A DNA stretch of 64,000 nt from the NCBI GenBank assembly GCA_965219105.1, contig OZ244728.1:3834180-3898179 (forward strand), given 5' to 3'. The position numbers and the translations under genes are program-made. Under the pieces are notes generated by a model. The model saw nothing but the letters and a program-made list of their open reading frames with translations. It made no database searches and was not told the origin of the DNA. Source of the DNA: Bryobacteraceae bacterium. Its GTDB lineage: Bacteria; Acidobacteriota; Terriglobia; Bryobacterales; Bryobacteraceae. Shown here one piece after another: positions 9,583-62,462 of the stretch (its first letter is position 1; each line of letters begins with the position of its first letter).

Positions 9583-10875
9583 ATGACAGAGCAAGTCGCT
9601 CCGGCAAAGGCTATCCATGGAGTTGTCACAGTGCCGGGCGACAAATCGATTTCCCATCGTTTTGCGATGCTGACTTCGATCGCGGAAGGCGATTCGAAAA
9701 TCTACAATTACTCGACCGGCGCGGATTGCCAATCGACCCTGGCGTGCATGGAAGCGCTTGGTGTTTCGCACACGTTTGGCAACGACGAGGGAAGCCCGGT
9801 GCTGATTGTACACGGCAAGGGCATGGGCGGTTTAACGGCTCCTGTGGGGCCGCTCGACGCGGGCAACTCGGGTTCCACGATTCGCATGCTCTCCGGCATC
9901 CTGGCTGGCCAGTCTTTTACGACAACCATCGCCGGGGATGAATCGCTCGCCAAACGGCCCATGCGACGGATTTTGCAGCCGCTCGGCGAGATGGGCGCGC
10001 AGGTTGAGGCGAAAGACAATCAGTATCCGCCGCTCACTGTTCATGGCTCAAAATTGCGGTCGATTACGTACCGCCCGCCGGTGGCAAGCGCGCAAGTAAA
10101 GAGCTGCGTGTTGCTGGCCGGTTTATATGCCGACGGGGAGACCATTGTCGAGGAGCCTGTCGCCACGCGTGATCATACCGAAATTGCGCTGCGTGAGTTA
10201 GGCGCCGATATTTCGCTGGAGCCGCGGCGGGTTCGTCTGCGCGGCCCCGCTTCGCTTTCCGGCAAGACGCTGGTAGTGCCTGGGGATCTTTCAGGCGCCG
10301 CCTTCTTTATCGTTGCTGCTTTGCTGATACCGGGCTCGGACCTCATTGTGACCGGGGTTGGTTTAAACCCGACCAGGACAGCGCTGCTCGATGTGCTCGG
10401 CGGGATGGGCGCAGCGTTCAAGATACTGCACATCGAAGAGGTGAATGGCGAGCTGATCGGAAACCTTCAGGTGCGCTCCTCTCGCATGCGGGGAGGAGTG
10501 ATCGAGGGTGCTACGACCGCGGCGCTCATAGACGAAATTCCTATTCTGGCGGTTCTCGGTGCTGCCAGCCAGAACGGGCTAATTGTAAGGGACGCAGGCG
10601 AGTTGCGCGTGAAAGAAACCGACCGTATCGAGACGATCGCGCGCAATCTGCGAGCGATGCAGATCGCGGTGACTACCACGGCGGATACGCTCGAGATCCC
10701 GGGCCGGCAGAAGTTTCGCGCGGCCGCCATCGAAAGCTGCGGGGATCATCGGATTGCGATGGCTTTTGCAATTGCCGCGCTGCTGGCGGATGCGCCATCC
10801 ACCATTCAGGATGCCGGCGCTTCTGCTGTTTCCTTTCCCGGCTTCTTCGACGCGCTGCGTCAAGTGGCGCAGTAA
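9583..10875 (+). CDS. aroA: 3-phosphoshikimate 1-carboxyvinyltransferase (EPSP synthase)
   Basis: 'VTVPGDKSISHR' and 'DAGNSGSTIRML' are present. ATG at 9583 chosen because the upstream 55 codons of the ORF have no homology-like content. Confidence 0.9.
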   Translation: MTEQVAPAKAIHGVVTVPGDKSISHRFAMLTSIAEGDSKIYNYSTGADCQSTLACMEALGVSHTFGNDEGSPVLIVHGKGMGGLTAPVGPLDAGNSGSTIRMLSGILAGQSFTTTIAGDESLAKRPMRRILQPLGEMGAQVEAKDNQYPPLTVHGSKLRSITYRPPVASAQVKSCVLLAGLYADGETIVEEPVATRDHTEIALRELGADISLEPRRVRLRGPASLSGKTLVVPGDLSGAAFFIVAALLIPGSDLIVTGVGLNPTRTALLDVLGGMGAAFKILHIEEVNGELIGNLQVRSSRMRGGVIEGATTAALIDEIPILAVLGAASQNGLIVRDAGELRVKETDRIETIARNLRAMQIAVTTTADTLEIPGRQKFRAAAIESCGDHRIAMAFAIAALLADAPSTIQDAGASAVSFPGFFDALRQVAQ

Positions 10876-10886: not shown

Positions 10887-11525
10887 ATGGAGGAAGCGAA
10901 CGACGCCGATCTTAGCCAAGAGAGTCTGATCCACGATCTGAACAACGTTTTCGAGACGATTACGGAAGCGGCTGAGCTGCTGAAGGCCGACAAGCGCTGG
11001 AAGCCGCTGGCCGCAACACTGTCTCGAAGCGTGCGGCGCGGCAAGAGGCTGCTTGGGGCAATTCCCGACGGAGCGCCTAACCTGGCGAGCATCGTCGATG
11101 ACGCGATTCAGTCGGTAAGCGATTACTGTCAAGCCGCGCGAAAGCCGCGCATGCGGTGGGTTCGGCGGCTCAGTCCTGAGATCCGGCTGCCTGGGTCATC
11201 GAAAGACTGGGAGCGAGTGTTCGCCAACATGTTTCTGAATACGGCCGAGATCATGCAGCGGCCCGGGCGCATCGAGATCGAATCGAAGAAAGATGCGGGG
11301 GGCCTATCGATCATCGTCTCGGACAACGGGCCGGGTATCGATCCGGAACTGTTGCCCTCGCTGTTTCGTCCGAATGTATCGACCAAGACCGGCACGAGTG
11401 TGCGATCGGGACTTGGCCTGCATATTGTGGCCTCGATTGTGAAGAAGTACTCCGGGCGAGTCTCGGCGGCCAATCGCGAGCGGGGCAAGGGCGCGGTTTT
11501 CACGATATTTATTCCCGAAAATTGA
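10887..11525 (+). CDS. Minimal cytoplasmic histidine kinase (DHp + HATPase_c, no sensor domain)
   Basis: H-box 'LIHDLNNVFETI', N-box 'FANMFLNTAEIM', G1 'SDNGPGID' and G2 'GLGLHIV'. Only 212 aa, with no TM or input domain. Confidence 0.7.
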   Translation: MEEANDADLSQESLIHDLNNVFETITEAAELLKADKRWKPLAATLSRSVRRGKRLLGAIPDGAPNLASIVDDAIQSVSDYCQAARKPRMRWVRRLSPEIRLPGSSKDWERVFANMFLNTAEIMQRPGRIEIESKKDAGGLSIIVSDNGPGIDPELLPSLFRPNVSTKTGTSVRSGLGLHIVASIVKKYSGRVSAANRERGKGAVFTIFIPEN

Positions 11526-11620
11526 GATAATCAAGGGTCTCCTGTCACGCTCTCGAAGAGAGACTGACCGCCAACAGTTGAGCTGGCGTCGCTCTAGACG
11601 GGAGTCCTCACCAATTTCGA

Positions 11621-39621: not shown

Positions 39622-39697
39622 GGGCCTGTGGCGCAGTTGGGAGCGCGCTTCCATGGCATGGAAGAGGTCGACGGTTCGAACCCGTCCAGGTCCACCA
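39622..39697 (+). tRNA. tRNA-Ala (anticodon GGC)
   Basis: GGGCCTGTGGCGCAGTTGGGAGCGCGCTTCCATGGCATGGAAGAGGTCGACGGTTCGAACCCGTCCAGGTCCACCA folds into a cloverleaf. It has the G3:U70 Ala identity pair, anticodon loop AT-GGC-AT and an encoded CCA. Confidence 0.9.
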
Positions 39698-46912: not shown

Positions 46913-47242
46913 CTACGATCTTGGGGACATCCTCATTAGTACGTCATTGTGCTCGTCGTGAAAAATCGGCTGCCCGCAACAGATCGAGAAATCCGGATAG
47001 CAGTACACGCAATCGCCGCGCAGGTACACTCTCATGTCCGCGATGAATGCAGTACACGAAGAAGCCCTCAATTTGCGACGGGAGAAGAAATCCGAAAGAT
47101 TCTTCACCAATGCATTGTGGGTGAGGGAAGCTCCGGCCCTAGCGAATACTTCGCCGTTGACATACTCGCTCTTCGACTCGGCAAGCCGCTCCCTCTGCAA
47201 ATATTCGTCCGGAGTAAGCCCTTGTTTTGGTTGCGTCGCCAT
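46913..47242 (-). pseudogene. Uma2-family (DUF820) endonuclease, C-terminally truncated
   Basis: 'EYVNGEVFARAGASLTHNALVKNL...YPDFSICCG' matches the N-terminal half of Uma2 proteins. It ends at 109 aa, where the family normally continues with the EVLSxST motif. Confidence 0.5.
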
Positions 47243-47283
47243 CCCTGTCCACGATTATCGGACAAATTGATAGCTACGTGGCG

Positions 47284-48033
47284 TCAACCTTCGTACTCAA
47301 CAGACACCAAATGCAAACCGCTAGCCGGCGCCGTAGGACCGGGTCGGATCCCTGATTGCGGCTCCAGTCGCGCCATCACCTCCGCGGTTCCTAGATTCCG
47401 CTTGCCGACCTCAAGCAAGACGCCGACTACGTTCCGGACCATGTGCTTGAGAAAGCCCGAACCCGTTACCGAGTACACGAGCGCTTGGCCTCTGCGCGAA
47501 AAACTTGAAGCGTAAATGGTGCGCCGCTTCGAAGCGTTAGCTGTATCGGCATAGTCATGCGCCGCAAACGCGGTGAAGTCATGCTCGCCGATCAACAAGG
47601 GCGCGGCTTCGCACATCGCGCTTTCCTGCAGCGGAAAAGGATGATGGTACACGTAAAGGCGCTCGAACGGCGAACAGACTTCCTCGCGAAAGATCCTGTA
47701 TTCGTAAGTTTTCTTTTTGGCATCGAATCGCGGATGAAAAGCAGGATCCGCCTCCTCGACGCGCGAAACCCGAATCGAGCGAGGCAAAAGGCGATTTACC
47801 GCACGCCGGAAGTTGTCCGCAGGAATCGGATTGCTCAGGCTCACTGCCGCCACTTGCGCCAGAGCATGTACACCGGCATCGGTGCGGCCCGAACCAATCA
47901 CTTGAACCGGTCTGCCCTCAATACCGCCGATCACCGACTCCAACGCCCCTTGAATGGTGGGCAAGCCGGGCTGAACCTGCCAGCCATGGAACTCGGTGCC
48001 ATCGTAAGCGACTTGAAAGCGTAGCCTTCTCAT
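47284..48033 (-). CDS. truA: tRNA pseudouridine(38-40) synthase
   Basis: 'RLRFQVAYDGTEFHGWQVQ' and catalytic 'GSGRTDAGVHA'. ATG at 48033. Confidence 0.85.
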   Translation of the reverse strand: MRRLRFQVAYDGTEFHGWQVQPGLPTIQGALESVIGGIEGRPVQVIGSGRTDAGVHALAQVAAVSLSNPIPADNFRRAVNRLLPRSIRVSRVEEADPAFHPRFDAKKKTYEYRIFREEVCSPFERLYVYHHPFPLQESAMCEAAPLLIGEHDFTAFAAHDYADTANASKRRTIYASSFSRRGQALVYSVTGSGFLKHMVRNVVGVLLEVGKRNLGTAEVMARLEPQSGIRPGPTAPASGLHLVSVEYEG

Positions 48034-48053
48034 GACCAGGGCGATCTGGCGCC

Positions 48054-48638
48054 CTAAACTTTGCGCGAGCCTGGCTTTACAACCGGCGTGCCCTCGCGGC
48101 AAAGCGGACACTCGGCGGGATCGTACGTCACCGGATGCAGGGTCTCGAGCGCCACGCGCGGCACGCCCACATCCGCGCTCCCCCCGCTCCGGTCGATGAT
48201 CGAACCTGCAGCCAAAACGTGAGCGCCGCTCTCCTGAAGCAACCGTATTACGTCGCGCGTGCTCCCACCCGTTGTAATCACGTCCTCCACCACCACCACG
48301 GGTTCGCCCACTGCGATTTCAAACCCTCGCCGCAGCGTCATCGCGTTTGTGGCGGCGTCTCGCTCGGTGAAAAACGCTCGAACCCCCAGTGCCCGTCCTA
48401 CTTCGTGCCCAATTACAATGCCGCCGATCGCTGGAGAGACCACCACCGCGGCAGGCGCTTGCAGCAGTGCCCGCACTTTCCCAGCCAGCTGTTCCCCCAG
48501 CTGCGCCGCATAAGAAGGATACGCGAGCACCTTGGCGCACTGCAGATACTCCGGGCTGTGCAAACCGCTCGTCAGCCGAAAGTGACCTCGCAAATATGCG
48601 CCTGTTTGCTCAAACAACTCCATGACCGATTGCGGCAT
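48054..48638 (-). CDS. pyrE: Orotate phosphoribosyltransferase (complete copy)
   Basis: 194 aa with the PRPP motif 'VVVVEDVITTGGS'. Confidence 0.85.
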   Translation of the reverse strand: MPQSVMELFEQTGAYLRGHFRLTSGLHSPEYLQCAKVLAYPSYAAQLGEQLAGKVRALLQAPAAVVVSPAIGGIVIGHEVGRALGVRAFFTERDAATNAMTLRRGFEIAVGEPVVVVEDVITTGGSTRDVIRLLQESGAHVLAAGSIIDRSGGSADVGVPRVALETLHPVTYDPAECPLCREGTPVVKPGSRKV

Positions 48639-49270
48639 TTCAGCCGAAAGAATAACAGGCCCCGCTTATTTTCCTTACCCTAGAGGCTCAACTCTTCTCT
48701 AAAGAACTGCGCCTGGCGACGCGACACTTCCAGCTTCTGACCGCCTCTCAAGGTGAGTTCCAGCCCTCCTGAAACTGCTGGCGCCGCTTCGGTGATCCAT
48801 TGCAGGTTTACGATTTGACTGCGGTTTGCACGAAAAAAGATGGCGGGGTCTAAGCGAGATTCCAGATAGTTGAGTGTTTTGAGAACAAGAGGCCGCTCGG
48901 CTCCGAAGTAAACGGTTGTATAGTTGCCTGAAACTTCGAAGAGCCGAACGTCCTTGAGGGCGACGAACCAGCACTTCTCGCCGTCGCGCACGAACACACG
49001 ATCGGCAGGCCCGAGCCGGTCAGGACGTTTGGCTGCCCCGGCCTTGCTTAGTTCAAGTATTCGTCGTGCCCGTTCAAGAGATAGCGCCAAACGGAAAGGC
49101 TCTACAGGCTTTACTAAATAGTCCAGCGCATTTTGTTCAAACGCTCGAACTGCGAACTCGCTGTAGGCGGTGCAAAAGATCACCAGCGGCGCGCGATCCA
49201 GGCTTTCGAGCAGATCGAAGCCGTCCCGCCCCGGCATTTGTATGTCCAAAAACATGAGATCCGGCGAACA
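48291..49270. repeat. Direct repeat copy A (980 bp): pyrE 5' part, spacer, LytTR regulator 3' part
   Basis: Collinear with 58959-59938 at a constant offset of 10668. I found only two mismatches (48374 and 48378). Confidence 0.9.
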
Positions 49271-49321
49271 GTTTCTGATGAGGGTGACGGCTTGTCGGCT
49301 GCGGCGAAGGCGGGTCTTCAT
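48680..49321 (-). pseudogene. LytTR response regulator, N-terminally truncated duplicate
   Basis: Identical to residues 46-240 of the 59348-60070 protein. The first ~30 receiver-domain codons (including the acidic pocket 'ILIEDS') are absent and replaced by the unrelated 'MKTRLRRS'. Confidence 0.7.
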
Positions 49322-49356
49322 CTTGATCGTAGTGTCTCCAGTTCAGAGTGCTGTTC

Positions 49357-49394
49357 GGGGCTTTGGTTGAGTGGATTTCCGCGTCACGTGATGT
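49357..49394 (+). repeat. Candidate Tn3-family 38-bp terminal inverted repeat (outer GGGG end facing left)
   Basis: GGGGCTTTGGTTGAGTGGATTTCCGCGTCACGTGATGT compared with the Tn3 IR as I remember it (GGGGTCTGACGCTCAGTGGAACGAAAACTCACGTTAAG). GGGG, AGTGGA and TCACGT line up with one 1-nt gap, about 22 of 37 positions. Confidence 0.3.
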
Positions 49395-49404
49395 TGTTTC
49401 GGCC

Positions 49405-49824
49405 TCACAGGCCCTTGATAGCACGTTCTGTTTTGTCGAAATCCTGCTGGCTAATCTTGAACGTGCCTCTCCGGAATGCCATCCCCCAGCTGCTGCGACC
49501 TTGCGTAAACGACAGTTCTTCAAGCAGCGAATGGATTGAGGCTTCCTTTACGTCAAGGTAGTGCACCTTCCGGCGGAATGGATGAACAGCGTTGTCCTGC
49601 CTGACCTGGAAGGGAGCATCATCGAGAATCTGTCCTAAGGCAGTGAAGGCCTGCACCGGTTTCCCGCCGCCAAGCCGCTCACGCGGTGAGTAGAAAACCA
49701 GGTGGTCGCCGCGTTTGAGTTTCCGGACGGGACCTTGCTTGCCGTGACTGAGCTGGCAAAAGGCTCCCTCCACCGCTGCCCGTACATGTTCACGGCTTGC
49801 GACACCAACCCAGTAGCTCTCCAC
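49405..49824 (-). CDS. EVE (PUA-like) domain protein
   Basis: 139 aa. 'YWVGVASREHV...GDHLVFYSP' resembles stand-alone EVE/DUF55 proteins. Confidence 0.55.
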   Translation of the reverse strand: MESYWVGVASREHVRAAVEGAFCQLSHGKQGPVRKLKRGDHLVFYSPRERLGGGKPVQAFTALGQILDDAPFQVRQDNAVHPFRRKVHYLDVKEASIHSLLEELSFTQGRSSWGMAFRRGTFKISQQDFDKTERAIKGL

Positions 49825-49910
49825 GGTTTTTAACCGGCAAGCACGACATCCCGAAGTTCGTAATCAACCGGATCGAAGGACGTGGCCAAGGACGCCGCTT
49901 TTTTCATATG

Positions 49911-50195
49911 TTATTGGACGTCGGGCTTCTTGCTCATGGCCTGATAGTCCTCCTTTGCTCTCCACTGTGCATAGTTGATCACCCTGCGCCGGTCCAAGCT
50001 CATGTGAAGACTCGCGGAGATGAAGCCCGGTTCGTAACGGAAGATGTCTTGCGTAGCGGTCTTGAGCACCTCCAGAAGACGCTCCGCGTTCTCCGGCTCC
50101 ACCATGAACGTATTGATGAAGGTGAGGTAACCGCCTTGCGGGTCGAGTGTGACGCCGGGAGTGGGGGACGGGGACGTGCGAGATGATGTTGTCAT
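49911..50195 (-). CDS. Antibiotic biosynthesis monooxygenase (ABM) family protein
   Basis: 'LTFINTFMVEPENAERLLEVL...INYAQWRAKEDYQAM' is ABM-like. The start is uncertain (50195, 50207 or 50243). Confidence 0.6.
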   Translation of the reverse strand: MTTSSRTSPSPTPGVTLDPQGGYLTFINTFMVEPENAERLLEVLKTATQDIFRYEPGFISASLHMSLDRRRVINYAQWRAKEDYQAMSKKPDVQ

Positions 50196-50231
50196 GGACC
50201 AGATCATAATATAAGGAGCCTTATATGTCAA

Positions 50232-50693
50232 ATGAGCGTGCATGAAGGAAAGCGGAACGAAAGAACACCCACAAGCGCATCGATTGGCCTAGTGCTGAAA
50301 GGTGCACAGCACGCACTGCGATTGATGATGGACAAACAACTTGAATCTCTTGGCCTTACCACGCCCCAGTACAACGTTCTCGCCGCAGTGCAGTCAGAAC
50401 CCGGCATCTCCAATGCCACACTTGCCCGCGCCGCCTTCGTTACAGCTCAGAGCATGGTGGGGATCGTGGTCAACCTGGAGCGCGAAGGTTTGCTCCGCCG
50501 GGAAGCTCACCCTACACATGGACGAATCCGGCGAAGCGAGCTGACCGAGAGGGGCAAAGAAGTTGTGGATAGTGCCCATGTCCTACTTAGCGGCGTCGAG
50601 GCCAGGATGACCGCAGGCTTCAGCGGGCGCGAGATCAAGACTCTTGAGCTTCTACTGCGTCGCAGCACTGAAAACATGCGTGCGCGGCGATAG
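50232..50693 (+). CDS. MarR-family transcriptional regulator
   Basis: 'LGLTTPQYNVLAAV...SNATLARAAFVTAQSMVGIVVNLEREGLLRR'. Confidence 0.8.
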   Translation: MSVHEGKRNERTPTSASIGLVLKGAQHALRLMMDKQLESLGLTTPQYNVLAAVQSEPGISNATLARAAFVTAQSMVGIVVNLEREGLLRREAHPTHGRIRRSELTERGKEVVDSAHVLLSGVEARMTAGFSGREIKTLELLLRRSTENMRARR

Positions 50694-50792
50694 CAGCCGC
50701 ACTGTTTCGCATCACTGTCGCGACCTGTTTAGGCGCCATCTTCCGCGATGATCGCTGAGCGCATCGCGCACGCTGCCCGTAATGGCATGTGA

Positions 50793-51795
50793 CTAATTCT
50801 CTTCCAGGATTGCCATAGCTAGGGCATGCTCGGGCTGCCATCCCTCCACCGACTGAACTGCCAGCTTTTGCCACTGTAACCCTTCGTTTTCCGATCTGTA
50901 GACTGCGCCCTCAGCAGAACAGTAGAAAACTTTGGATTCAATATCGCTGGCTGCCAAGACCGGGATGCGCACTCCCCGGGGCTGAGGCAAACCGTTCTGT
51001 ACTCGTTGCCACGAATCACTTCCGGTACGCCGATAAACGGTGGAATTAGCTGAAGCTTTGAAATGCGCCTCGTACGCGCTCTTTGCAGCTGAAAGCAATA
51101 AGAGTCGGCGGATCTCCCCGGCTGGCAGCGATGCTCCAGCAATAGCCATGCTCTAGGCCATCGTCTCTGCGTCGCCAGCTCTCGCCGCCATCCAGGCTTT
51201 CGAAGTATCCGTCGCCAGCGGCGGAGAATAGCTGGGTGGGACTCTGTGGATGAACGGCAAGGGCATGGGTATCTCTAGGGCTGCTCGGACGCCGGTCCCG
51301 CCAGGTAGCCCCTGCATCGTCGCTTTGAAGCAGCGCTCCGGCTTCGATGGCAACATGCAAGCGATCCGGCATCGCCAGATCTGGAAGTATTGACTGGACG
51401 TGATGCGTCTCTGGCCGTGGCGGAAAACTCCATTCTCCTGCTGACGGCAGGTTGGATAGTGTCTCGAGTGCACGCCACCTTTCACATCCGTCATCGGAGC
51501 AATAGATGGCGCTCAACTCTGTCCCTGCGTAAAGGATGCCCGAGCGACAGGCGGCAAGCGCCGTTACGTTAGGTTCAGCAAGGCCCAGACACGGCTTCCA
51601 AGTAGCGCCACCATCGTCACTTTTAAACATGCCGTCGCCTAACGTTCCACAATAAGCAACGCGCCTCTGATGACGGTCAATGGCTACACACTGAACCTGC
51701 TTACCCACGAGAAGAGTTTCGCCGCGCCAGTTGCTCCCGGCACCTGCGATCACTGCTAGGCCAGAAGGCGTAGCCAAAAAGATTGTCGTCTTCAT
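50793..51795 (-). pseudogene. BNR/Asp-box beta-propeller protein, frameshifted
   Basis: Repeated 'SDDGGATW', 'SDDAGATW' and 'SLDGGESW' Asp-boxes. The reading frame switches between ORFs 51046-51795 and 50793-51149, which overlap near 51080. Confidence 0.6.
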
Positions 51796-51974
51796 TCAAG
51801 CACCTCCTGTCTTGGTGTACAAAAATGGTGCAGCCCGAAAGTTGATTATGAACGGTGGTGTCGCTTCCTTCCGCTCACCTGCCGAGCAAACGCTCGGCAG
51901 GTGAGAAGAGCCATCCGGTCGCATGAATGCCGTCGGACCATAGACCGGCGCTACTGTCTGATTCGACGAAGAAC

Positions 51975-52838
51975 TCACGCGCTGAAGAAGTCCCCAAGCG
52001 CCTGGGCGACGAACGCCGGGTTTTCATCGCCGATCCAGTGTCCGGCTTCGGGGATTACCTTAGTGGTTACGTCAATGCCTACGGGTTTCCAGGCAGCGTC
52101 GACAAACGGCCCGATCGACGCCTCGCCAGCCATCGCCAAGACCGGCATGGTCAGCGGCTTCTTGTGAAGGATGGCAAAATCCTCGGCATCCTTCCAGACC
52201 GCGGCATAGTAGTTGATGCCAGCACGGAGGGCGCCGGGTTTCGAGATCTCCCGGGCATAGGCTTCGAAGTGCTCGGCACTCAGGTGGACATTGCCAGAGT
52301 AAGCAATGTGATAGAACCACCACGACAGCATCTCGCGCTCCTTGCCGCGGATCAGGAACTCGGCTGCATCCGGCACCGTGAACAGCGAGAGATGCCAGTT
52401 TGAGTTGAGGGACCAATCCTTGGTCGGCGCCATGTTCTGCTCGTATCCAAAGCTCGGCAGCGCGAACTCAATGAACGCGACTCGCTCCACCCGGTCGGGG
52501 TAGTCTCGCGCGAAGGCCGCCGCGGTGCGCGCTCCGAGATCATATCCAGCAATGAAAGCCTTTTCGACGCCGATAGCATCGAGCAAACCCTTTAAGTCTG
52601 AAGCCATCGTGGTTCCGTCGTACCCGTCGGCGGTAATCGACGACATGCCCACTCCTCGCTGGTCGAGTGCGATGACGGTGAACCGTTCCGCAAGAAGAGG
52701 ACCTATCGCGTGCCACATCAGCGAATGCTGGGGAAAGCCATGGAGAAGCACGACAACTGGTCCCGTTCCCGAGGTCCGGTAGTGGAGGTTGACGAGGCCG
52801 ACCTGAATCCGCCTGCTGCTCCAATTCTTGAATTCCAT
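51975..52838 (-). CDS. Alpha/beta hydrolase, epoxide hydrolase/haloalkane dehalogenase-like
   Basis: 'VVLLHGFPQHSLMW' and an Asp-nucleophile elbow 'IAGYDLGA'. Confidence 0.75.
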   Translation of the reverse strand: MEFKNWSSRRIQVGLVNLHYRTSGTGPVVVLLHGFPQHSLMWHAIGPLLAERFTVIALDQRGVGMSSITADGYDGTTMASDLKGLLDAIGVEKAFIAGYDLGARTAAAFARDYPDRVERVAFIEFALPSFGYEQNMAPTKDWSLNSNWHLSLFTVPDAAEFLIRGKEREMLSWWFYHIAYSGNVHLSAEHFEAYAREISKPGALRAGINYYAAVWKDAEDFAILHKKPLTMPVLAMAGEASIGPFVDAAWKPVGIDVTTKVIPEAGHWIGDENPAFVAQALGDFFSA

Positions 52839-52903
52839 TTTATTTACTCCCTTAGCGCATCAGCGATGCTCATTCTTGATAACTTATCGGCTGCGTCTGG
52901 AGG

Positions 52904-53254
52904 TCAGGCGGGCCGGAAAACGAAATTCTCCTGCGACACGATGAAATCGCAGTGTTCCAGGTCGATGAAACTCGCCTCGTCTGGCCGGATCACTTTCATA
53001 TACTCGGCGTCGGAGAAGAGCGTTCCGATCGCTTCGACGTCGTCGAACCAAAGCTCGGTGATGCCGTCATACTTCGGCGGTGGCATGCCTGGCAACTCGA
53101 CAGGCAGCGCGTGCTGCTGGACGTAGCGGCGCACAGTGTCCTTGACGACCGGCACCGACATGAACAGCGCCGCGTGCGAGTTGCGGTGGTAATCGACGAA
53201 CTGCTCGTGCGTGAGTGAAGCTTTTCGCTTTAGCAGAATGCTGAACTTGATCAT
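52904..53254 (-). CDS. EthD domain protein
   Basis: 116 aa. 'MIKFSILLKRKASLTHEQFVDYHRNSHAALF' is typical of the EthD family. Confidence 0.65.
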   Translation of the reverse strand: MIKFSILLKRKASLTHEQFVDYHRNSHAALFMSVPVVKDTVRRYVQQHALPVELPGMPPPKYDGITELWFDDVEAIGTLFSDAEYMKVIRPDEASFIDLEHCDFIVSQENFVFRPA

Positions 53255-53586
53255 GACAGCTCCTTTGCTGATGGCCGAGCGTGGCAGGATATTCGAGCCC
53301 GCTCCCCAGATTTGTCGTTGTTGGTTGCGGCTGCATAGTTACTATGGGTCGCTGGTAATTTGAACTGAGGCGCTTTCAGCTCCCTCAAAAACATCTTCTG
53401 GCTTTGCGAGCTCTCCTTCACGTCATGTTGCACCTGCTACTTTCCCTCGATTTCTGGCTGCGGCCACCGTGCAGACATGCTGAATGCAAATTCCTCAACC
53501 CTTTCAGAGCCTCGCAACAACTCGGCATTCCTGCGCCGAGTCACTCCAGATAGAGTGCCCGGTACGATTTCGAATCGAGTGCCCAT

Positions 53587-53871
53587 TTAGCACACGATGA
53601 CGTCTGTGAGCAGAACGGCTGCGATGGCGAGAGCGGCAATACGCACGCGATGTCTCTTGTCCCAAATCCGATGAATCCGCTGGCAATCAGCAGCACCTTC
53701 GGCGACGCGACTATTCATGAAGTCGGCGATTCCATCCTCCACATCGGCCGGAAGAACGCTCCTCCGTGCTGACAACTCTCGTACCATCGCTCTAACCGGC
53801 ACATCCATGGGCGCAAGCCGCTTAAGAATCTCTCTTCCGTTGTTTCCGGTCGCGCCTGTAGTAAGAATCAG
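53587..53871 (-). pseudogene. NmrA/SDR-like NAD(P)-binding protein fragment
   Basis: 'LILTTGATGNNGREILKRL...VRAMVRE' is a Rossmann N-terminus with no start codon. It terminates after about 95 codons, and about 330 bp of non-coding-looking sequence follows. Confidence 0.35.
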
Positions 53872-53913
53872 GGATTGGTTTCCTCAAAGATGAATCGTTA
53901 GCCCGTTCGTATT

Positions 53914-55191
53914 TCACGGCTTACCTGCAAGAACATCATCGATCCATGCGTAGACTATGTCCTCCGCACCGGGATTGCCCATGTGTTGGCGATTTCCTCT
54001 TGTTACAAGATCCTTCTGATCGCCTCTGGTCGCGACAATAACGCTGTCTTCGATGGGAAAGATCGAGTCTTCCGTGCCGTTGATGATCAAAAGCTTGCAA
54101 CTTGGTTGATCCAGTATTCCTGTCTCCAAAAGACTGAACTTGAGCGCCTGCCGTGAGTAGGTACCGACAGGATCGAAATCGCGGTAGCCAAACTTATAGG
54201 CAAGAGCTTCGGCGAGAGCGAAAGGATACTCCATCTGGTTCTGTGCGCGAATCCACTCGGGAGCGAACATGTAGTGGCAACCGCCGCCTTGCGCCACAGC
54301 GGCAAACAACCGGTCCGCGTGCGTGTGAGCAATCCGCATTGCATAGTATCCGCCCGTACTGATTCCACGTGCGACTATCTTGCGTAAGTCAAAGCCATAC
54401 TGCAAAGCGTTTGCCGCGACCCAATCCAAGACGCTAGACATGAGGCGGTCCGGAGAAGACGGATCGTTGGGTGATGCTGGGCAATCACCCGTGCCTGGAA
54501 TTTCGAAACTGAGGGTTACAAACCCACGGTCCACATGTTCCTGTGTACGTGGCGTATGGTCAGTCTTAAGCGTCGAGGCCGCAGATGAACAAAAGTACGG
54601 GCCAGCCCTCTTTAGGTTTGTCTTGCTCAGGTATTCTCAAGTAGGCCTGAATGTTAGAAACGGAGTCCCCGGCGAAAGATCTGCGTGCGCAAACGGCACT
54701 TCGACCTTCACGCTAGCGGGACAGAGGTACTGTCCCGCTTTCTCATACGCCGATTTTCCGCGCTCCCAAGCTTCCTCGCTAACCGGAGATCGATTGATTG
54801 GAAATCTTGCTATCCGGTAGACTGCGGCGGCTCGCAGGAACAGGTCTCGAGCGCGCGATGTGTCCCCAATCGCTTCCGCCTGTTCAGCAAGCACGACCAG
54901 GCTCTCTCCGATTGAAAAGAACGGCTTCGCATAATCGTCCGGACGGTAGAGAATGTCAGAACTGTCTTTAGACAAACGCACAAGTTCACCGAAGACTGGA
55001 TCAAAGTCTTCGACATTCGCGTCTGTGAATGGATAAATTCCATGCTGGCAGGCCGGTCGCCACTTGTCAGACCAAAGCTGCGAAACGGACTCGTGATACG
55101 CGAAATATGGAAAGCCGTTCCGTAGGTCAGCCGCCGTCGATTGAACGTGATATGGAGGCGAAACGATCGAAGTTGTTCTGTTCATAGCCAC
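53914..55191 (-). pseudogene. Alpha/beta hydrolase of the FrsA/DUF1100 type, two frameshifts
   Basis: The N-terminal ORF is 54637-55191 and the C-terminal ORF is 53914-54534 (nucleophile 'GISTGGYYA'). The bridging segment reads 'AYLRIPEQDKPKEGWPVLLFICGLD' in a third frame. Confidence 0.6.
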
Positions 55192-55205
55192 GTTGACTTA
55201 CGGAT

Positions 55206-55736
55206 TCAAGCCTCTTTTAGCATCTCGGTTTTGTATTTCGGGGCAAGTGCCTGGGCCTTCTGCATGAATTCCGCTTGCTGCTTTTCGTCCAGCTTCGGAG
55301 GAGGAGTCGTACGAGTGGCGACCGGGATGCCGACCTCGATAAAGAATTTCTCCTGGCCCGAAGGGGAGCAGATACACAGCAGGCGGACCGGTTTGGACGA
55401 GGTGTTACGGAACTGGTGAGGGGCATTACGGGGAACATTCACGCTATCGCCGGCACGAACGGTGGATTTGTCTCCTCGGAAAGTCGCTTCAATCTCACCT
55501 TCCAGGAGTATGAACGTTTCCTCAAAAGCATGACGGTGCGGGGGAGGACCACCCCCGGGCGGAATGTGCATGTCGATCACGCAGAACTGTCCGGCCGTAT
55601 CATCTCCGTTTATTGTTATCGTGTATGTGTCTCCCACCAAACCTATATGCGGAAGAGATTGGTCTCTGTCGGGACTGGCGGTCGCGAGTTTGCGTTTCAG
55701 GTCGTCGGGCTGTAGCGGCGGTGTCGTTTGGGGCAT
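55206..55736 (-). CDS. Cupin domain protein
   Basis: 'PPHRHAFEETFILLEGE' and 'VNVPRNAPHQFRN'. ATG at 55736. Confidence 0.75.
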   Translation of the reverse strand: MPQTTPPLQPDDLKRKLATASPDRDQSLPHIGLVGDTYTITINGDDTAGQFCVIDMHIPPGGGPPPHRHAFEETFILLEGEIEATFRGDKSTVRAGDSVNVPRNAPHQFRNTSSKPVRLLCICSPSGQEKFFIEVGIPVATRTTPPPKLDEKQQAEFMQKAQALAPKYKTEMLKEA

Positions 55737-55749
55737 TGCTATTCTCCTT

Positions 55750-56331
55750 CTAAACTGTTGTTTTCCACTCGAGAAATTGTCGGCGTTGAGATGCACGATG
55801 AGGTGCTCGGTAATCGCAACAAGCGTGGAAGGCATCTGAACTACCTGCCTTGTTCGCAGCGAGAGCTTCTCGTCGCGAAACGTCGCCTCGATTCAAGATC
55901 AGGAAAGCAAAAGCTATGGTGAGGAGCACAACCCGCCAGCGGTGAAGCAGGTCCCATCTCCTCCGAAATGTCTTCCAATCAGCAGGTGGGGTGACCTCCT
56001 GCCAGGACGAAATACGGTTGTTAATCGGCACCAAAGCAGTAAGCGAAAACAAGATCGCCAAAGCCCACAACGTGGCCGACGTAACAACCCAGATCGGAAA
56101 GCGGCCGGATCGGTGCCACTGGATGTAGGCCTCAGCTAAGGTAAGCAAGAACACAAGGCCGTACCAAAATGGCGTAAATTTACCTAGCACGCGGGCTAGG
56201 GCGCTTGCCACTGGCAGATGAACATTGTCTGGAAGCCGATTCAGAGTTGGGTGAACAAAAGCGGCGATGGCCAGTTCACTTCCAACCATCAATCCAGCTA
56301 CGATAATCGCGATGAGATCCAAGGCTTCCAT
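55750..56331 (-). CDS. DUF1772 (anthrone-oxygenase-like) membrane protein
   Basis: Start 'MEALDLIAIIVAGLMVGSELAIAAFVHP'. Four hydrophobic segments. The long 5' extension of ORF 55750-56712 overlaps the next gene and is Arg/His-rich. Confidence 0.55.
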   Translation of the reverse strand: MEALDLIAIIVAGLMVGSELAIAAFVHPTLNRLPDNVHLPVASALARVLGKFTPFWYGLVFLLTLAEAYIQWHRSGRFPIWVVTSATLWALAILFSLTALVPINNRISSWQEVTPPADWKTFRRRWDLLHRWRVVLLTIAFAFLILNRGDVSRREALAANKAGSSDAFHACCDYRAPHRASQRRQFLEWKTTV

Positions 56332-56357
56332 CGTCAACTCCTTGATAAGCGGGCAAG

Positions 56358-56771
56358 TTATGGTTTCTTCCTCTTCAGAAGAAACGCAGCAACGATCATC
56401 ATGTAAAGCGCAGTTCCCCAGTGGATATAGATGGGCGGCGCAAAGCCGAGATGTCTCAGAATGACCAAGCCATCGCAAAACGGGATGAAAATTGCTATGG
56501 CGAAGATGATCGCGGTGCTGCGCCGGTCTCCTCTCCAGAGGAATGACAGGACTGCCAACCCCGAAAAGATGTCGCGAATTCCCTTGATCCACATGAAAGG
56601 GAAAGCAGCGGGATCGTGAATCGGAATGCCGTACGCTGTCGAGGCCCCAACTGGGTTGAGTATGAAGTTGATGCCGGTGCCGATAATCGCGACCGGAATC
56701 ACGAGAGTGCACCAGAAAAGCAGCGAATTCTTTCTCAGAGTTGGATTGTCTAAGCTCGTTATCGTATTCAT
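56358..56771 (-). CDS. DUF4267 membrane protein
   Basis: 137 aa with four TM-like segments. 'GINFILNPVGASTAYGIP...KGIRDIFSGL' matches my memory of DUF4267. Confidence 0.5.
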   Translation of the reverse strand: MNTITSLDNPTLRKNSLLFWCTLVIPVAIIGTGINFILNPVGASTAYGIPIHDPAAFPFMWIKGIRDIFSGLAVLSFLWRGDRRSTAIIFAIAIFIPFCDGLVILRHLGFAPPIYIHWGTALYMMIVAAFLLKRKKP

Positions 56772-56789
56772 TCGTTTTGTCTGTTCCCG

Positions 56790-57197
56790 TTACTTGAGCG
56801 GAGAACTTCTGGTGGGTATGAGAACCGTCGATTCAACGCCAACGATATCGGAAAGATTAAAGTCCCTGGTGTCACTAGCAAATTCAGCGCTTCCCATGTA
56901 ACGCTGAGCGACCTCGCCGGGATCTTCACCCGCTGCATAAGAGGCCAGCACGAAGAGCCGCGGCTCAACATCTTCCTTGGCCGTCCAGAAGCCGTGGGCC
57001 TCAATCCCGAACAGCGGAAAGCTGTTGAGATGACGGGGATAAATTTGCTCCATGTAGAAATTGAGCGCCTCTTTCGTGCGCAGCTTGTACACGCGAAGTT
57101 CAAAAGGTTCGCAATGTCGTCTCCTCCGCTCCGGATAAAAATATATCACAACTAGTAACACTAGCAATGCTATAGTCGATTCAAAAGCATTTGACAA
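56790..57197 (-). CDS. NIPSNAP-family protein
   Basis: 'FELRVYKLRTKEALNFYMEQ...GIEAHGFWTA' is NIPSNAP-like. The N-terminal ~25 residues and the start codon are doubtful. Confidence 0.5.
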   Translation of the reverse strand: MSNAFESTIALLVLLVVIYFYPERRRRHCEPFELRVYKLRTKEALNFYMEQIYPRHLNSFPLFGIEAHGFWTAKEDVEPRLFVLASYAAGEDPGEVAQRYMGSAEFASDTRDFNLSDIVGVESTVLIPTRSSPLK

Positions 57198-57236
57198 AGA
57201 TTTAGCAGTTGAAAATCCTGTAGTTCTAGCAGCGCT

Positions 57237-57839
57237 ATGCTTTCTGTCATGGCGAAGACGCTGTCGGCCAACCGAATTGCGGAACGAAAACTGCGGGACA
57301 AGGAGGCCCGCCGAGCACAGATTATCAATGCGGCACGGAGAATCGCGGAGCTTGAGGGCTGGTCTAACGTGACTGTTCGGCGGCTGTCCGACGAAATCTC
57401 ATACAGCCAACCGGTCTTGTACGCGCATTTTGAAAGCCGCGAAAGAATTCTCGCCGCAGTTGCTATTGAAGCTTTCCAGGAGATCGGCCTGGCCTTGGAG
57501 AAGGCACGGAAACGGCCTAAGCGTGGAAATCTAGTCGAATCGGTTGCGGACGCATACTTGGAATTTGCCGCTTCTTCACCAGCACTGTACGAAGTGATGT
57601 TTTCGCTCAGCCTGAGCGTACCATTCGATGACCCAGCTACTCCTCGGGAGCTGCGATTCGCGTTTGCCCAACTTCTGGAGTTGTTTGAGGGACAGGGCTC
57701 GAAATCGCTGGTTTTATCAGAAGTGTTCTGGGCGGCCCTTCACGGTGTCGCCGAGCTCACAAGGACCAAGCGATTTCCGCCCAGCCGTCAGAGAGCGCGC
57801 GTGAGGGCGCTCGTCGAGCTCTTCACTTTCCCAGGATGA
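57237..57839 (+). CDS. TetR/AcrR-family transcriptional regulator
   Basis: HTH 'VTVRRLSDEISYSQPVLYAHF'. Divergent from the NIPSNAP-to-hydrolase gene array. Confidence 0.85.
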   Translation: MLSVMAKTLSANRIAERKLRDKEARRAQIINAARRIAELEGWSNVTVRRLSDEISYSQPVLYAHFESRERILAAVAIEAFQEIGLALEKARKRPKRGNLVESVADAYLEFAASSPALYEVMFSLSLSVPFDDPATPRELRFAFAQLLELFEGQGSKSLVLSEVFWAALHGVAELTRTKRFPPSRQRARVRALVELFTFPG

Positions 57840-58129
57840 AATGCCTCAGTTGGTGAAGGCGCGATACAGATCCCGAAAACCCTGAGAGGCGGACTTATTG
57901 CGAGTGCGGTTCCAGTATTTGTTGCGCTAGCCACCCGAGCGTAGAACGCGCGTTCCTCTCTTCTGCCTACGCCCGGCACCGCACACAGCGCCCAGTCTAC
58001 GCAACGCCGACAACACGGCAAGGTGGGTTACTCTAGGCCAGACTGGACCGATCGGCAAAAAAACAACGCTAACGCTGAGAGCGCTCGCAAAACGCCTCTG
58101 AAAGAGCGAGGCTGGGTACGCTGGCCGGT

Positions 58130-58958
58130 ATGTCAGCGCCTCAGCAGCTTACGCAAGCCCAAAGAGACCGGTTACAAACCGCTCATCATCTACTTAGCCG
58201 GCGGGAGATGGTCCGGCATTGGTTGGTTATCTAAAGAGGATTGGAACCGCATTGACGAGAAACGCCGGAGCATAACCGGCTGGGGTTTGCCATTCAGCTT
58301 TGCCTGCTCCGCTATCCAGGCTGGCCAGTCGGGCCAGGCGAGAACCCGCCGCAAAATCTGTTGAGGTTTGTCACCGAGCAACTCGCTGTCGATGCAGCTG
58401 AGGTGGCCGAGTACTCCCGGCGCCCGCAGACCCGAACCGACCACGCCCAGGAATTAGCCCGGCTGTACCGGTTTCGTCAGTACGTCTCTCCTTTTCCGGC
58501 TATGCTGCGCGAGCACCTTCGTGCCGAAGCGATCAGCAACGAATCGGCCTACACCCTCATGGAGAGCGCCCTAGAATGGCTCCGGAGCCAACATGTCATG
58601 GTCCCCGCTCTGACCACTTTAGAGTTCCTTGTGAGGAGAGTGCGGAGTGAGGTCGAACATCGGGTCTATGAGCGGATCGAGAAAGCGCTCACCGCGGAGC
58701 AGAAGAAGACGCTGGACGGTCTTCTGGAGGTGAGCCCCAGACGTGGCAGCATGTTGGGCTGGATGCGCCGAGTTCCCGGCTCTTGTTCTACTGCCGGCAT
58801 TCAAGATTTGATCCGCCGGCTCAACTGGGTTCGCAGCTTGTATTCCCGTGATTCGGCTGCAGCAGTTAGCCGCGCGCGGCGCACGACATAGCCTCAGCCA
58901 CTTCCGGCGATTTCCCAATCCCAAGCGCCACGCTATGTTGACCGCGTTTCTGATCTAT
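58130..58958 (+). mobile_element. Tn3-family transposase (tnpA) N-terminal remnant, at least 3 frameshifts, truncated at 58958
   Basis: Pieced across frames: 'MSAPQQLTQAQRDRL...REMVRHW', 'LSKEDWNRIDEKRR', 'NRLGFAIQLCLLRYPGWP...YSRRPQTRTDHAQEL...LEWLR...' and 'RLQQLAARGARHSLSHFRRFPNPKRHAMLTAFL'. This is the DUF4158 N-terminal region pattern. About 275 of about 1000 codons remain. Confidence 0.7.
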
Positions 58959-59306
58959 CACCACCACGGGTTCGCCCACTGCGATTTCAAACCCTCGCCG
59001 CAGCGTCATCGCGTTTGTGGCGGCGTCTCGCTCGGTGAAAAGCGCCCGAACCCCCAGTGCCCGTCCTACTTCGTGCCCAATTACAATGCCGCCGATCGCT
59101 GGAGAGACCACCACCGCGGCAGGCGCTTGCAGCAGTGCCCGCACTTTCCCAGCCAGCTGTTCCCCCAGCTGCGCCGCATAAGAAGGATACGCGAGCACCT
59201 TGGCGCACTGCAGATACTCCGGGCTGTGCAAACCGCTCGTCAGCCGAAAGTGACCTCGCAAATATGCGCCTGTTTGCTCAAACAACTCCATGACCGATTG
59301 CGGCAT
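58959..59306 (-). pseudogene. pyrE duplicate, only the first ~116 codons
   Basis: Same as pyrE residues 1-116 with one F-to-L change. It loses the PRPP motif at the junction with the tnpA remnant ('GEPVVV|IDQKRG'). Confidence 0.85.
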
Positions 59307-59938
59307 TTCAGCCGAAAGAATAACAGGCCCCGCTTATTTTCCTTACCCTAGAGGCTCAACTCTTCTCTAAAGAACTGCGCCTGGCGACGCGACACTTCCA
59401 GCTTCTGACCGCCTCTCAAGGTGAGTTCCAGCCCTCCTGAAACTGCTGGCGCCGCTTCGGTGATCCATTGCAGGTTTACGATTTGACTGCGGTTTGCACG
59501 AAAAAAGATGGCGGGGTCTAAGCGAGATTCCAGATAGTTGAGTGTTTTGAGAACAAGAGGCCGCTCGGCTCCGAAGTAAACGGTTGTATAGTTGCCTGAA
59601 ACTTCGAAGAGCCGAACGTCCTTGAGGGCGACGAACCAGCACTTCTCGCCGTCGCGCACGAACACACGATCGGCAGGCCCGAGCCGGTCAGGACGTTTGG
59701 CTGCCCCGGCCTTGCTTAGTTCAAGTATTCGTCGTGCCCGTTCAAGAGATAGCGCCAAACGGAAAGGCTCTACAGGCTTTACTAAATAGTCCAGCGCATT
59801 TTGTTCAAACGCTCGAACTGCGAACTCGCTGTAGGCGGTGCAAAAGATCACCAGCGGCGCGCGATCCAGGCTTTCGAGCAGATCGAAGCCGTCCCGCCCC
59901 GGCATTTGTATGTCCAAAAACATGAGATCCGGCGAACA
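58959..59938. repeat. Direct repeat copy B (980 bp)
   Basis: See copy A. The left edge is a sharp breakpoint and the right edge grades into lower identity. Confidence 0.9.
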
Positions 59939-60070
59939 ACTTTTGATGAGGGTGATAGCTTGGTCGGAGTTGGCCGCCTCGCCAGCAACTTCAATATCGG
60001 TTTCGGCGGCCAGCAAGCGGCGCATCTCCGCGCGAGCCAGGCGGGAATCTTCGATGAGGATAACCTTCAC
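59348..60070 (-). CDS. LytTR-family response regulator (complete)
   Basis: REC domain ('KVILIEDS', 'FLDIQMPGRDG') plus a LytTR DNA-binding domain. Its start overlaps the kinase stop by 4 nt. Confidence 0.85.
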   Translation of the reverse strand: MKVILIEDSRLARAEMRRLLAAETDIEVAGEAANSDQAITLIKSCSPDLMFLDIQMPGRDGFDLLESLDRAPLVIFCTAYSEFAVRAFEQNALDYLVKPVEPFRLALSLERARRILELSKAGAAKRPDRLGPADRVFVRDGEKCWFVALKDVRLFEVSGNYTTVYFGAERPLVLKTLNYLESRLDPAIFFRANRSQIVNLQWITEAAPAVSGGLELTLRGGQKLEVSRRQAQFFREELSL

Positions 60071-61101
60071 GCGTGGCTAGGAATTTCGGCGGTTGCCGCG
60101 ACTCTTCCCTTTGCTATGTCTTCCAACCGCAACGTCGAATTCGCTCCGCATAAGAGCTGGAGGCGCTCTCGAGCGTTGGCGATGCCAAAGCCCGGGCTAA
60201 GCGGTTCCACTAATCGCCCGGTGTTCTCTACTTTCACTTCCAGCCGTCCGCTGTGCATCCTGGCGCGGATCAGAACTTCGCCGTCTCCGGGTTGCTTTGA
60301 AATCCCATGCTTGATGGCGTTTTCAACAAGTTGCTGCACCAACATCGGAGGAACTAAAGCGCGCATTGCCTCGTCGTCCGCCTCGATTGCCCAACTCAGC
60401 CGCGATTCGAAATGCAGTTTCTCCAGTTCGAGGTAAGCCCGCACGATGCTTAGTTCCTGATCCAAAGTGACTTTCTCTTCGCGCCCGGCTTCGAGCGAAT
60501 AGCGCAGCAACCCGGAAAGGCGGAGTAGCATCTCGCGAGCTTTTTCCGAATCTTCCGCCACCAACGACCGTACATTATTGAGGCAGTTGAAAAGGAAGTG
60601 TGGATTGACCTGAGACTTCAAGGCCCGCAACTCGGCCTCTTGCAGGCTGGCTTCGAGTTGTAGAGATTGCCAACTCTTAGCTCGATAGCGCACGAATGCT
60701 ATGTAGCAAAACGACCAGAGACTCAGCAGAATAAACGAGGCGAGAACGTAATACCAATACATGGAGGCCTGCTCACGATAAGTGGCGATTCCCGCCGCGA
60801 TTGCCGCGGGTGACACACAAAGGTCGACTGCCATCGCCAGCAGTGCCACGGTGGGCAGAAGGCGGGCAGTCAACTTTGGACCGGGCAGCGACAACCACCG
60901 ATTCCGCCTCATAATCAGGCGCAGTGCGTGAGAGCCGGCCAGGTGGCCCAGCATGATCACCAGCCAGACCGCCAGCACTACCAGCCGCTTGCTGACTGCG
61001 TACATCTCCACGGCAGCCACCGAAAAGTAGCCGCCCCAACTTATAGCTTGCAGACTCCAGTAAAGGAGCATTCGTCCGGTGCCGGGCCTGTCGCTACTCA
61101 T
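60067..61101 (-). CDS. LytS/YehU-type sensor histidine kinase
   Basis: About 5 N-terminal TM segments, the His_kinase motif 'NPHFLFNCLNNV', and an HATPase_c domain. Confidence 0.85.
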   Translation of the reverse strand: MSSDRPGTGRMLLYWSLQAISWGGYFSVAAVEMYAVSKRLVVLAVWLVIMLGHLAGSHALRLIMRRNRWLSLPGPKLTARLLPTVALLAMAVDLCVSPAAIAAGIATYREQASMYWYYVLASFILLSLWSFCYIAFVRYRAKSWQSLQLEASLQEAELRALKSQVNPHFLFNCLNNVRSLVAEDSEKAREMLLRLSGLLRYSLEAGREEKVTLDQELSIVRAYLELEKLHFESRLSWAIEADDEAMRALVPPMLVQQLVENAIKHGISKQPGDGEVLIRARMHSGRLEVKVENTGRLVEPLSPGFGIANARERLQLLCGANSTLRLEDIAKGRVAATAEIPSHA

Positions 61102-61984: not shown

Positions 61985-62462
61985 GCAGTCAGGTTAGGGC
62001 CGTCTGGCCGCGGGCTGTGCAGATTTTGATGAGCGGTTAGGACGGCACTGTGAAAGGTCTTGCACCGGGATTTGCGCTATGAATTCTGATCGTTTGGACC
62101 TGACTCTCCGGCCACTGACTGTTGAACTCCGGTGCAGCGCATCCCAAAAGCGGACACTCCATTTCCGTTGCATTAGTCGATGCTGCCCTTAAGCCATTGC
62201 AAGCAAAAGACTCCACGCACCGCTAAGCAATGGTCAGCCGCTTGCAGAGTTCAAGCAAGCAACCCGGAATTGCGGTTGAGATGAGTGGAACCGGAACTGC
62301 TTTCCTGCGTTACCATGAGGATTCGTCAAATTAAAGGGGAACTCAGCCGCAGTGCGATCCGTTCTCATTAGCACTGGGTGGAGTTGCGCGATGGAAAGAT
62401 GCCGAACAGCAGCCTGAGGCGAAGTGCGGCTATCGACCGGTAAGGATTTCTGAACGATATTG

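Follow-up and report, generated by a model that had tools for sequence, protein, structure and literature searches.

Introduction

Campbell integrants and merodiploids, known from suicide plasmids and Hfr formation, carry an insert between direct copies of a chromosomal fragment, each copy being continuous with one flank, and can be resolved by RecA to a scarless single copy. Here we analyzed a 64,000-nucleotide stretch from a Bryobacteraceae bacterium (NCBI GenBank assembly GCA_965219105.1, contig OZ244728.1, positions 3,834,180 to 3,898,179), referred to below as the window and used for all coordinates unless another contig is named, in which a direct repeat of about 1 kb, covering parts of pyrE and of a LytTR-type response regulator gene, brackets a 9.66-kb island of accessory chromosomal genes. 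As in Campbell integrants, direct fragment copies bracket the insert, each is continuous with one flank, an unoccupied single-copy site is found in a relative (metagenome contig L081), and RecA resolution to a scarless single copy is likewise possible. The locus differs from these integrants in that it is a natural case, in that the insert carries no replicon, marker or transfer function, and in that the joints between fragment and cargo appear illegitimate and cut genes. Our results indicate that the locus is probably a passive genomic island built by general recombination or repair functions of the host, with no element-encoded recombinase or transposase involved.

Other described systems share part of this anatomy. 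At duplication join points and template switches of the microhomology-mediated break-induced replication or fork stalling and template switching type (MMBIR/FoSTeS-type), staggered novel joints likewise duplicate the target, as in this locus with its left microhomology of 0-3 bp, and few single-copy changes cluster beside the joints; the locus differs in that its inserted 9.7 kb has relatives in other lineages and not in nearby host sequence. Illegitimate integration of foreign DNA likewise proceeds without an element-encoded enzyme and leaves joints with little or no homology, but in most of the events described so far recipient DNA is lost or exchanged rather than duplicated over 1 kb. Classical genomic islands, integrative and conjugative elements and integrative and mobilizable elements are also accessory blocks that are absent from a close relative and flanked by direct repeats. 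However, their att sites are short, whereas the repeats described here are 980-1,010 bp long and span parts of two genes, no integrase, relaxase, excisionase or other recombinase and no short att sites were found, and the island lies neither at a tRNA gene nor at a gene 3' end, the nearest tRNA gene to the repeats (39622-39697) being ~8.6 kb away. In Tn3-family elements that resemble insertion sequences (IS) and have the organization inverted repeat (IR)-tnpA-IR (contigs L087-L092), a 40-bp IR ending ACGCTAA(G/C) is followed by the DUF4158 N-terminus of tnpA, as at the right edge of the island. In contrast, only one IR and ~28% of tnpA are left here, with neither IRs at both ends nor an intact DDE transposase with a 5-bp duplication, and this element would be a passenger broken by the junction rather than the cause of the insertion. 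A literature search on natural Campbell-type islands and on duplicative illegitimate integration returned nothing directly comparable.

Results

A direct repeat divides the pyrE/regulator locus into reciprocal copies

In a constant-offset comparison (offset 10668), window positions 48291-49270 and 58959-59938 are direct repeats with two mismatches in 980 bp, at 48374/59042 (A/G) and 48378/59046 (T/C), a match that cannot be chance. Identity begins abruptly at 48290/48291. The other edge is soft and extends from 49271 to ~49300, where the left copy consists of regulator sequence that departs from the right copy at five substituted positions and by a 1-bp deletion. Because the regulator homology of the left copy runs on to ~49300, the true duplication is ~1,010 bp long with this diverged 30-bp tail counted in.

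On the left side, truA (47284-48111, minus strand; Pfam PseudoU_synth_1), which is present in single copy and collinear with L081, is followed by an intact pyrE of 194 aa (48054-48638, minus strand; Pfam Pribosyltran), equal in length to that of L081. The near-identical part of the left copy (48291-49270) comprises pyrE codons 1-116, a 41-bp spacer and the 3' 591 bp of the regulator gene, and is followed by the diverged regulator tail (49271-49300), which ends the duplication in three-way alignments, the L081 alignment reaching 49299. The regulator of this copy (RR', 48680-49321, minus strand) lacks ~33 N-terminal codons. As judged by translation of its open reading frame (ORF) and Pfam search, Response_reg is matched only from profile position 30 and the LytTR domain is full, and the ORF starts at a new ATG at 49321 that is supplied by cargo DNA (MKTRLRRSRQAV...).

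The right copy (58959-59938) carries the changes at 59042 and 59046, which are absent from both the left copy and L081. Its truncated pyrE (pyrE', 58866-59306, minus strand) translates into 116 native codons (59306 down to 58959) and then reads through into an antisense tnpA fragment, the cut falling within the motif that binds phosphoribosyl pyrophosphate (...GEPVVV followed by IDQKRG, versus VVVVEDVITTGGS in the intact pyrE). Beside it lie an intact LytTR response regulator of 240 aa (59348-60070, minus strand; Pfam Response_reg 1-107 and LytTR), whose L081 orthologue is also 240 aa long, and, on the right flank, a LytS/His_kinase sensor kinase (60067-61101, minus strand) that is 99% identical in aa sequence to its L081 orthologue.

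A previous reading of this DNA by a model that saw only the letters and a list of ORFs (the sequence-only reading) had reported two differences between the copies, one of them an F-to-L change in pyrE, as well as the reciprocal pattern of intact and truncated genes. All of these were borne out, the F-to-L change as RAFFTERD versus RALFTERD and the reciprocal pattern by ORF translation and Pfam analysis of both copies of pyrE and of the regulator. The repeat length of 980 bp given there holds for the near-identical part, and the diverged tail that brings the duplication to ~1,010 bp had been overlooked.

The site is unoccupied and single-copy in a close relative

The relative was reached via a cluster mate of the kinase with 99% identity, and is represented by a 60.8-kb ENA metagenome contig (ERZ25071669 ctg8532, L081). 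In L081, an abhydrolase gene and the genes for the histidine kinase, the 240-aa response regulator, the 194-aa PyrE and TruA are contiguous and single-copy, with nothing between the regulator gene and pyrE. Window positions 64000-58959 align to L081 7101-12143 at 98.55% nt identity, and positions 49299-46933 to L081 11134-13502 at 96.2%. On L081, both alignments cover the 1,010 bp at 11134-12143, which correspond to the duplicated segment. In a more distant contig (L093, kinase 57% identical), the kinase is likewise followed by one intact regulator. Because L081 and L093 each have a single undivided regulator, the split and duplicated arrangement is, as far as these two sequences indicate, derived. 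An alignment with close relatives had been proposed in the sequence-only reading as a check, and L081, with its single-copy locus free of the island, identifies the interval as an insertion. For the L081 lineage itself, a scarless excision cannot be told apart from an island that was never present.

Searches for further relatives returned mostly Bacteroidota-type matches at 50-58% identity and no close relative when genome contigs were scanned with the regulator, and a best match of 70% when metagenome contigs were scanned with the kinase. Among the database matches to the kinase, one case of an occupied site is known.

Both joints cut through genes with little or no evident homology

The left junction (49300/49301) connects regulator codon ~33 with a point that, in the native context of the cargo, follows the stop codon of EVE by ~20 bp. 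Here the regulator sequence ...GGCTTG-TCGGC meets cargo whose counterpart in L094, a 131.7-kb ENA contig, reads ...GGGGT up to the joint and TGCGGCGAAG... from it. The homology to L094 starts exactly at this junction. As the L081 homology stops at 49299 and the L094 homology starts at 49297, left microhomology is at most 3 bp, and the left joint is, on the evidence of these alignments, illegitimate.

The right junction (58958/58959) connects tnpA codon ~276 with pyrE codon 116. The tnpA sequence ...TTTCTGATCTAT meets pyrE CACCACCACGGG..., where the native pyrE reads ...CGTCCTCCAC. No homology is evident between native pyrE and tnpA at this joint, the nearest tnpA relative being only ~70% identical there. 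On its host side, the left joint thus interrupts the regulator gene, and its cargo side begins beyond EVE. The right joint is intragenic in host and cargo alike, and the target positions of the two joints are 1,010 bp apart.

The cargo is an accessory block with relatives in other lineages

A Pfam scan of ORFs indicated that the 9.66 kb between the repeats consists of accessory chromosomal genes. The left half (49301-53364), which was delimited by Pfam matches and by synteny with L094 and L095, is encoded on the minus strand except for MarR, and contains EVE (49405-49824), an ABM monooxygenase (49911-50243), MarR (50232-50693, plus strand), a BNR-like pseudogene split in two ORFs (50793-51795), an alpha/beta hydrolase (51975-52838) and EthD (52904-53254), all assigned by Pfam. 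The right half (53365-58033), likewise on the minus strand except for TetR, begins with remnant patches recognized by short matches to L095 (53393-53717), followed by a split FrsA-like esterase (53914-54534 and 54637-55191), a cupin (55206-55835), a DUF1772/anthrone-oxygenase-like protein (55750-56331), DUF4267 (56358-56771), NIPSNAP (56790-57197) and TetR (57237-57839, plus strand), again by Pfam, the last being also 80% identical in nt sequence to L095.

Window positions 49297-53364 match L094 at 92-93% nt identity with the order EthD-hydrolase-BNR-MarR-ABM-EVE fully syntenic, and match L095, part of a 1.69-Mb contig, at 89-91%. Farther versions of EthD and the hydrolase, at ~80% nt identity, occur in chromosomal and IS-rich contexts. 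In 90%-identity clusters, the cargo hydrolase has 30 members and EthD has 18, on many different contigs, versus one to three members for pyrE and ten host proteins across the window, whose clusters are confined to one or two sister strains. Because the cargo is 92-93% identical to DNA of organisms whose housekeeping proteins fall outside the 90% level, the comparison indicates that the cargo is probably shared horizontally. The foreign DNA postulated in the sequence-only reading is supported by these findings, since the closest relatives of the cargo are in other lineages. A foreign compositional signature was sought and none was found: tetranucleotide composition and GC content at third codon positions (GC3) of the cargo are not outliers (rank 7/45), and the donor would therefore be compositionally similar. 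A match to the TetR/DUF4267 region of a Granulicella plasmid, which is weak, together with the names of distant homologues (Bryobacteraceae, Acidobacteriaceae and Acidicapsa), suggests an acidobacterial setting.

A module of the order TetR/DUF4267 ... EthD-hydrolase-(ABA4-like)-BNR-like-MarR-ABM-EVE recurs in many ENA soil long-read contigs (L082-L086, L094 and L095), with varying insertions between its genes (IS66, IS110, IS3, IS630 or an AraC-NmrA pair), and appears to be an often-exchanged accessory block. A 44-nt direct repeat of 70% identity between a distant host region (9812-9855) and the cargo BNR-like gene (51254-51297) is probably a chance match.

Integrase, resolvase, replication and transfer domains were searched with Pfam in sense and antisense ORFs of at least 100 aa across 49301-58958, and none was found, in agreement with the sequence-only reading, in which no site-specific recombinase had been seen. 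The interval likewise has none of the features of a plasmid, a phage or an integrative element. Two sources of the cargo were considered and rejected. A plasmid origin was set aside because the plasmid database gave no megablast match and, in a permissive search, only weak matches at 66-75%. A laboratory suicide-vector integrant at pyrE was dismissed because no vector parts are present and the interval, with its pseudogenes and its IS remnant, is natural DNA of soil bacteria.

A decayed Tn3-family remnant forms the right edge of the island

The island terminates in 925 bp that represent the left end of a Tn3-family IS-like element, which had been overlooked in the sequence-only reading. It begins with a terminal IR (58034-58073, plus strand), ending ACGCTAAC with the element body to its right, and with the full sequence TAGGCCAGACTGGACCGATCGGCAAAAAAACAACGCTAAC. 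This IR was recognized through contigs L087-L092: a small element in L087 matches it at either end, the inverted match reaching 90.7% over 54 bp, and matching sequence also flanks the DDE_Tnp_Tn3 genes of L088-L092 on their 3' side. Behind it lies a tnpA pseudogene (tnpA', 58130-58958, plus strand), in which Pfam and a three-frame reading identified the DUF4158 N-terminal domain. It has in-frame stops at 58232 and 58253 and a frame change near 58840-58889 (the first frame ends at 58889), and is 52-81% identical to its homologues. It ends with '...AMLTAFLIY' exactly at 58958, at about codon 276 of a gene of ~1,000 codons, and has no DDE domain.

The IR sits 885 bp inside the right junction, which is a break inside tnpA and not a transposon end. 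The cargo lies outside the Tn3-family element because the IR faces it. A second IR was not found, nor was any inverted repeat detected in the region.

Related Tn3-family IS-like elements with a ~40-bp IR ending ACGCTAAG were observed in JGI metagenome contigs (L087-L089, L091 and L092) and in ENA contig L090. The element at L087 747-2145 is an internally deleted remnant of ~1.4 kb, and in L088-L092 a cassette composed of Y2_Tnp and phage-integrase fragments splits tnpA.

Changes in the two copies cluster beside the joints

The history of the copies was polarized with L081 as third sequence. Within the 980 bp, both copies have 18 differences from L081 in common. The left copy has no unique change and shows the L081 state at both mismatches, and the two changes of the right copy (59042 and 59046) lie 84-88 bp from the right junction. 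Along the 30-bp tail, L081 and the left copy agree at five positions where the right copy differs, and the changes unique to the left copy are one at 49275 and the 1-bp deletion 5 bp from the junction. Treated as two events, these changes would both lie by chance within the 118 junction-proximal bp, out of 2,020 bp, with a roughly estimated probability of ~0.003. This clustering may come from error-prone synthesis during formation of the joints, or from gene conversion that homogenizes the interior and spares the edges.

Beyond the repeat, the right copy is ~10% diverged from L081 over a further ~160 bp (59939-60127). Other divergent patches lie at 46997-47311 (~13%) and 61998-62172 (~8%), with 0.2-2.7% divergence elsewhere, and the three patches look like imports from more distant strains by homologous recombination. 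One of them starts exactly where the identity between the repeats stops. In the order of events that we propose, an L081-like allele would have been copied by the duplication, homologous recombination would then have brought a divergent patch, with its end 30 bp within the repeat, into the functional regulator, and the few later single-copy changes would have arisen beside the novel joints. The insertion event is not brand new. The decay within the cargo fits a non-recent event: compared with L094, the BNR-like gene carries a +1 frameshift (51099) and the EVE 3' end shows 1-bp indels (49417 and 49384), to which the split esterase and the dead tnpA can be added.

Several further observations concern the surrounding region. 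Collinearity with L081 ends at a breakpoint at 46933, which is 1.36 kb from the repeat and within a Uma2-family gene (46913-47242) whose ORF is 109 aa long in the window versus 167 aa in L081. Past this breakpoint, L081 has accC/accB, whereas the window has unrelated hypothetical genes. A tRNA-Ala(GGC) gene (39622-39697) is followed by ~7 kb (39.7-46.9 kb) that are absent from the L081 contig and contain hypothetical genes, a PRK-like kinase, a methyltransferase and an aminotransferase, with no integrase seen, and this may be a further variable region. Orthologues of the genes at 2-39 kb of the window are on another ENA contig of 88 kb.

Discussion

Formation of the island

We propose that a TetR/MarR-associated accessory block of ~9.66 kb, with relatives in other soil bacteria, would have been joined to the chromosome at two staggered joints. 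Because the joints are staggered, the target would have been duplicated instead of interrupted, so that pyrE stays with truA and the regulator with its kinase. As for how a passive island of this kind was made, we tentatively prefer a single duplicative insertion, while giving it somewhat less than an even chance. In one variant, replication would leave the regulator at ~49300, copy foreign DNA from past EVE into tnpA and resume 1,010 bp upstream in pyrE, and in another, the two ends of a fragment would join staggered positions on sister chromosomes. A single duplicative insertion would need just the two observed joints and would account for the locus at least as economically as a Campbell crossover. 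A second copy of the inserted DNA was not found within the 64-kb window.

Several points weigh against this interpretation. Both junctions come from one assembly, and the comparison with a close relative is a comparison with L081 alone. To explain the L081-like tail of the left copy, one must assume either that the functional regulator later received an import by recombination or that the fragment came from a different strain. The normal base composition of the cargo leaves room for an intragenomic source, and no sequence feature tells a one-step duplicative insertion from a Campbell crossover.

In the Campbell-type integration favored in the sequence-only reading, a non-replicating circle carrying the cargo and a captured 1,010-bp fragment with parts of pyrE and the regulator gene would enter by one RecA crossover, and could leave and re-enter. 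This is possible, but we consider it unlikely. The topology of that reading stands exactly, with its reciprocal truncations and the single-copy empty site, and the left tail and the two right-copy changes, which lie at the island-proximal ends, would fit a fragment of slightly different ancestry. However, such a fragment from another strain should differ throughout the 980 bp, and the copies differ at two sites where L081 differs at 18-20. For the circle to exist, the two illegitimate joints would also have had to arise beforehand in a cell of the same species, which adds steps and removes none. Furthermore, the cargo encodes no replication, partition, transfer or recombinase functions, no plasmid relative was found and only one occupied site is known. 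A circle is just one of several routes to this topology. An origin within the same genome would be in keeping with the composition and GC3 of the cargo, which are indistinguishable from host DNA: cargo and IS would come from elsewhere on the chromosome through a large tandem duplication, with one endpoint within pyrE or the regulator and another within tnpA or next to EVE, followed by a deletion that leaves the order A-B-cargo-B-D. Both joints resemble the illegitimate join points of duplications and deletions, and the breakpoint at 46933, only 1.36 kb away, indicates that the region was rearranged more than once. Still, we judge this origin distinctly improbable, since it needs two independent illegitimate events on top of an earlier acquisition, the closest relatives of the cargo are in other lineages, and no second cargo copy is present in the 47 kb on the left, in the 4 kb on the right or in the next 7 kb in L081.

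The sequence-only reading had further suggested that the island is maintained and mobilized purely by captured host homology. As a recombinase-free and homology-dependent mobile unit, it would re-enter conspecifics with an empty site as a RecA-released circle or as a linear repeat-cargo-repeat molecule, with gene conversion maintaining the near-identity of the repeats over long periods. Only the topology speaks for this, with one occupied site known and several cargo genes decaying, and the chance that it is correct appears slight; if it were true, the captured host homology would be the attachment site of the element. A false duplication made by a chimeric join or a misplaced contig is less probable again, although the structure rests on one assembly and a 1-kb repeat can mislead short-read assemblers. 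The source is a single contig of 5.56 Mb, two false joins at exactly reciprocal positions would be required, and the copies can be distinguished by their two internal differences and by the unique 30-bp tail with its 1-bp deletion. L081 and L094 moreover independently validate the left joint on either side and, at the right joint, the host part, the tnpA part being matched only by diverged homologues. Delivery of the cargo by two-ended or one-ended Tn3-family transposition, as the IR and the 5' part of tnpA at the right edge might suggest, was rejected on the anatomy of the IR, the truncated tnpA and the size of the duplication, and is in our judgement almost inconceivable. Facing the cargo from 885 bp inside the junction, the IR places the cargo outside the element; a partner IR was not found; tnpA, which carries stops and a frameshift, is cut by the junction at codon ~276; and the duplication measures 1,010 bp, versus target duplications of 5 bp in this family (PMC8116780). 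Taken together, we judge the passive island to be an unusually clean example of a known recombination outcome, and find no evidence for a new kind of element.

Consequences for the host and for island detection

The intact pyrE retains 632 bp of its native upstream sequence (48639-49270), and the intact regulator retains its kinase. We infer that the insertion was phenotypically mild, because both an intact pyrE and an intact regulator were kept, where a simple insertion at either joint would disrupt one of them. The truncated regulator RR' lies downstream of, and co-directional with, the cargo genes EVE and ABM, an arrangement that could lead to its expression and to read-through into pyrE-truA. 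If expressed, RR' would be a DNA-binding protein of the LytTR type whose receiver domain is crippled.

Direct repeats of ~1 kb at 99.8% identity are good RecA substrates, from which scarless deletion or amplification is expected. Recombination between the two copies, as expected here, could delete the island scarlessly, which would make it unstable if it were neither under selection nor of recent origin. The locus offers a clean natural case in which ~10 kb of chromosomal DNA from another lineage was gained without mobile-element machinery. Its kilobase repeats should make such an acquisition scarlessly reversible and lead to presence/absence polymorphism in the species, of which L081 represents the empty state. 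Such islands would evade island-prediction tools, as they have no integrase, tRNA site or compositional skew, and near-identical flanking repeats need not imply a recent origin.

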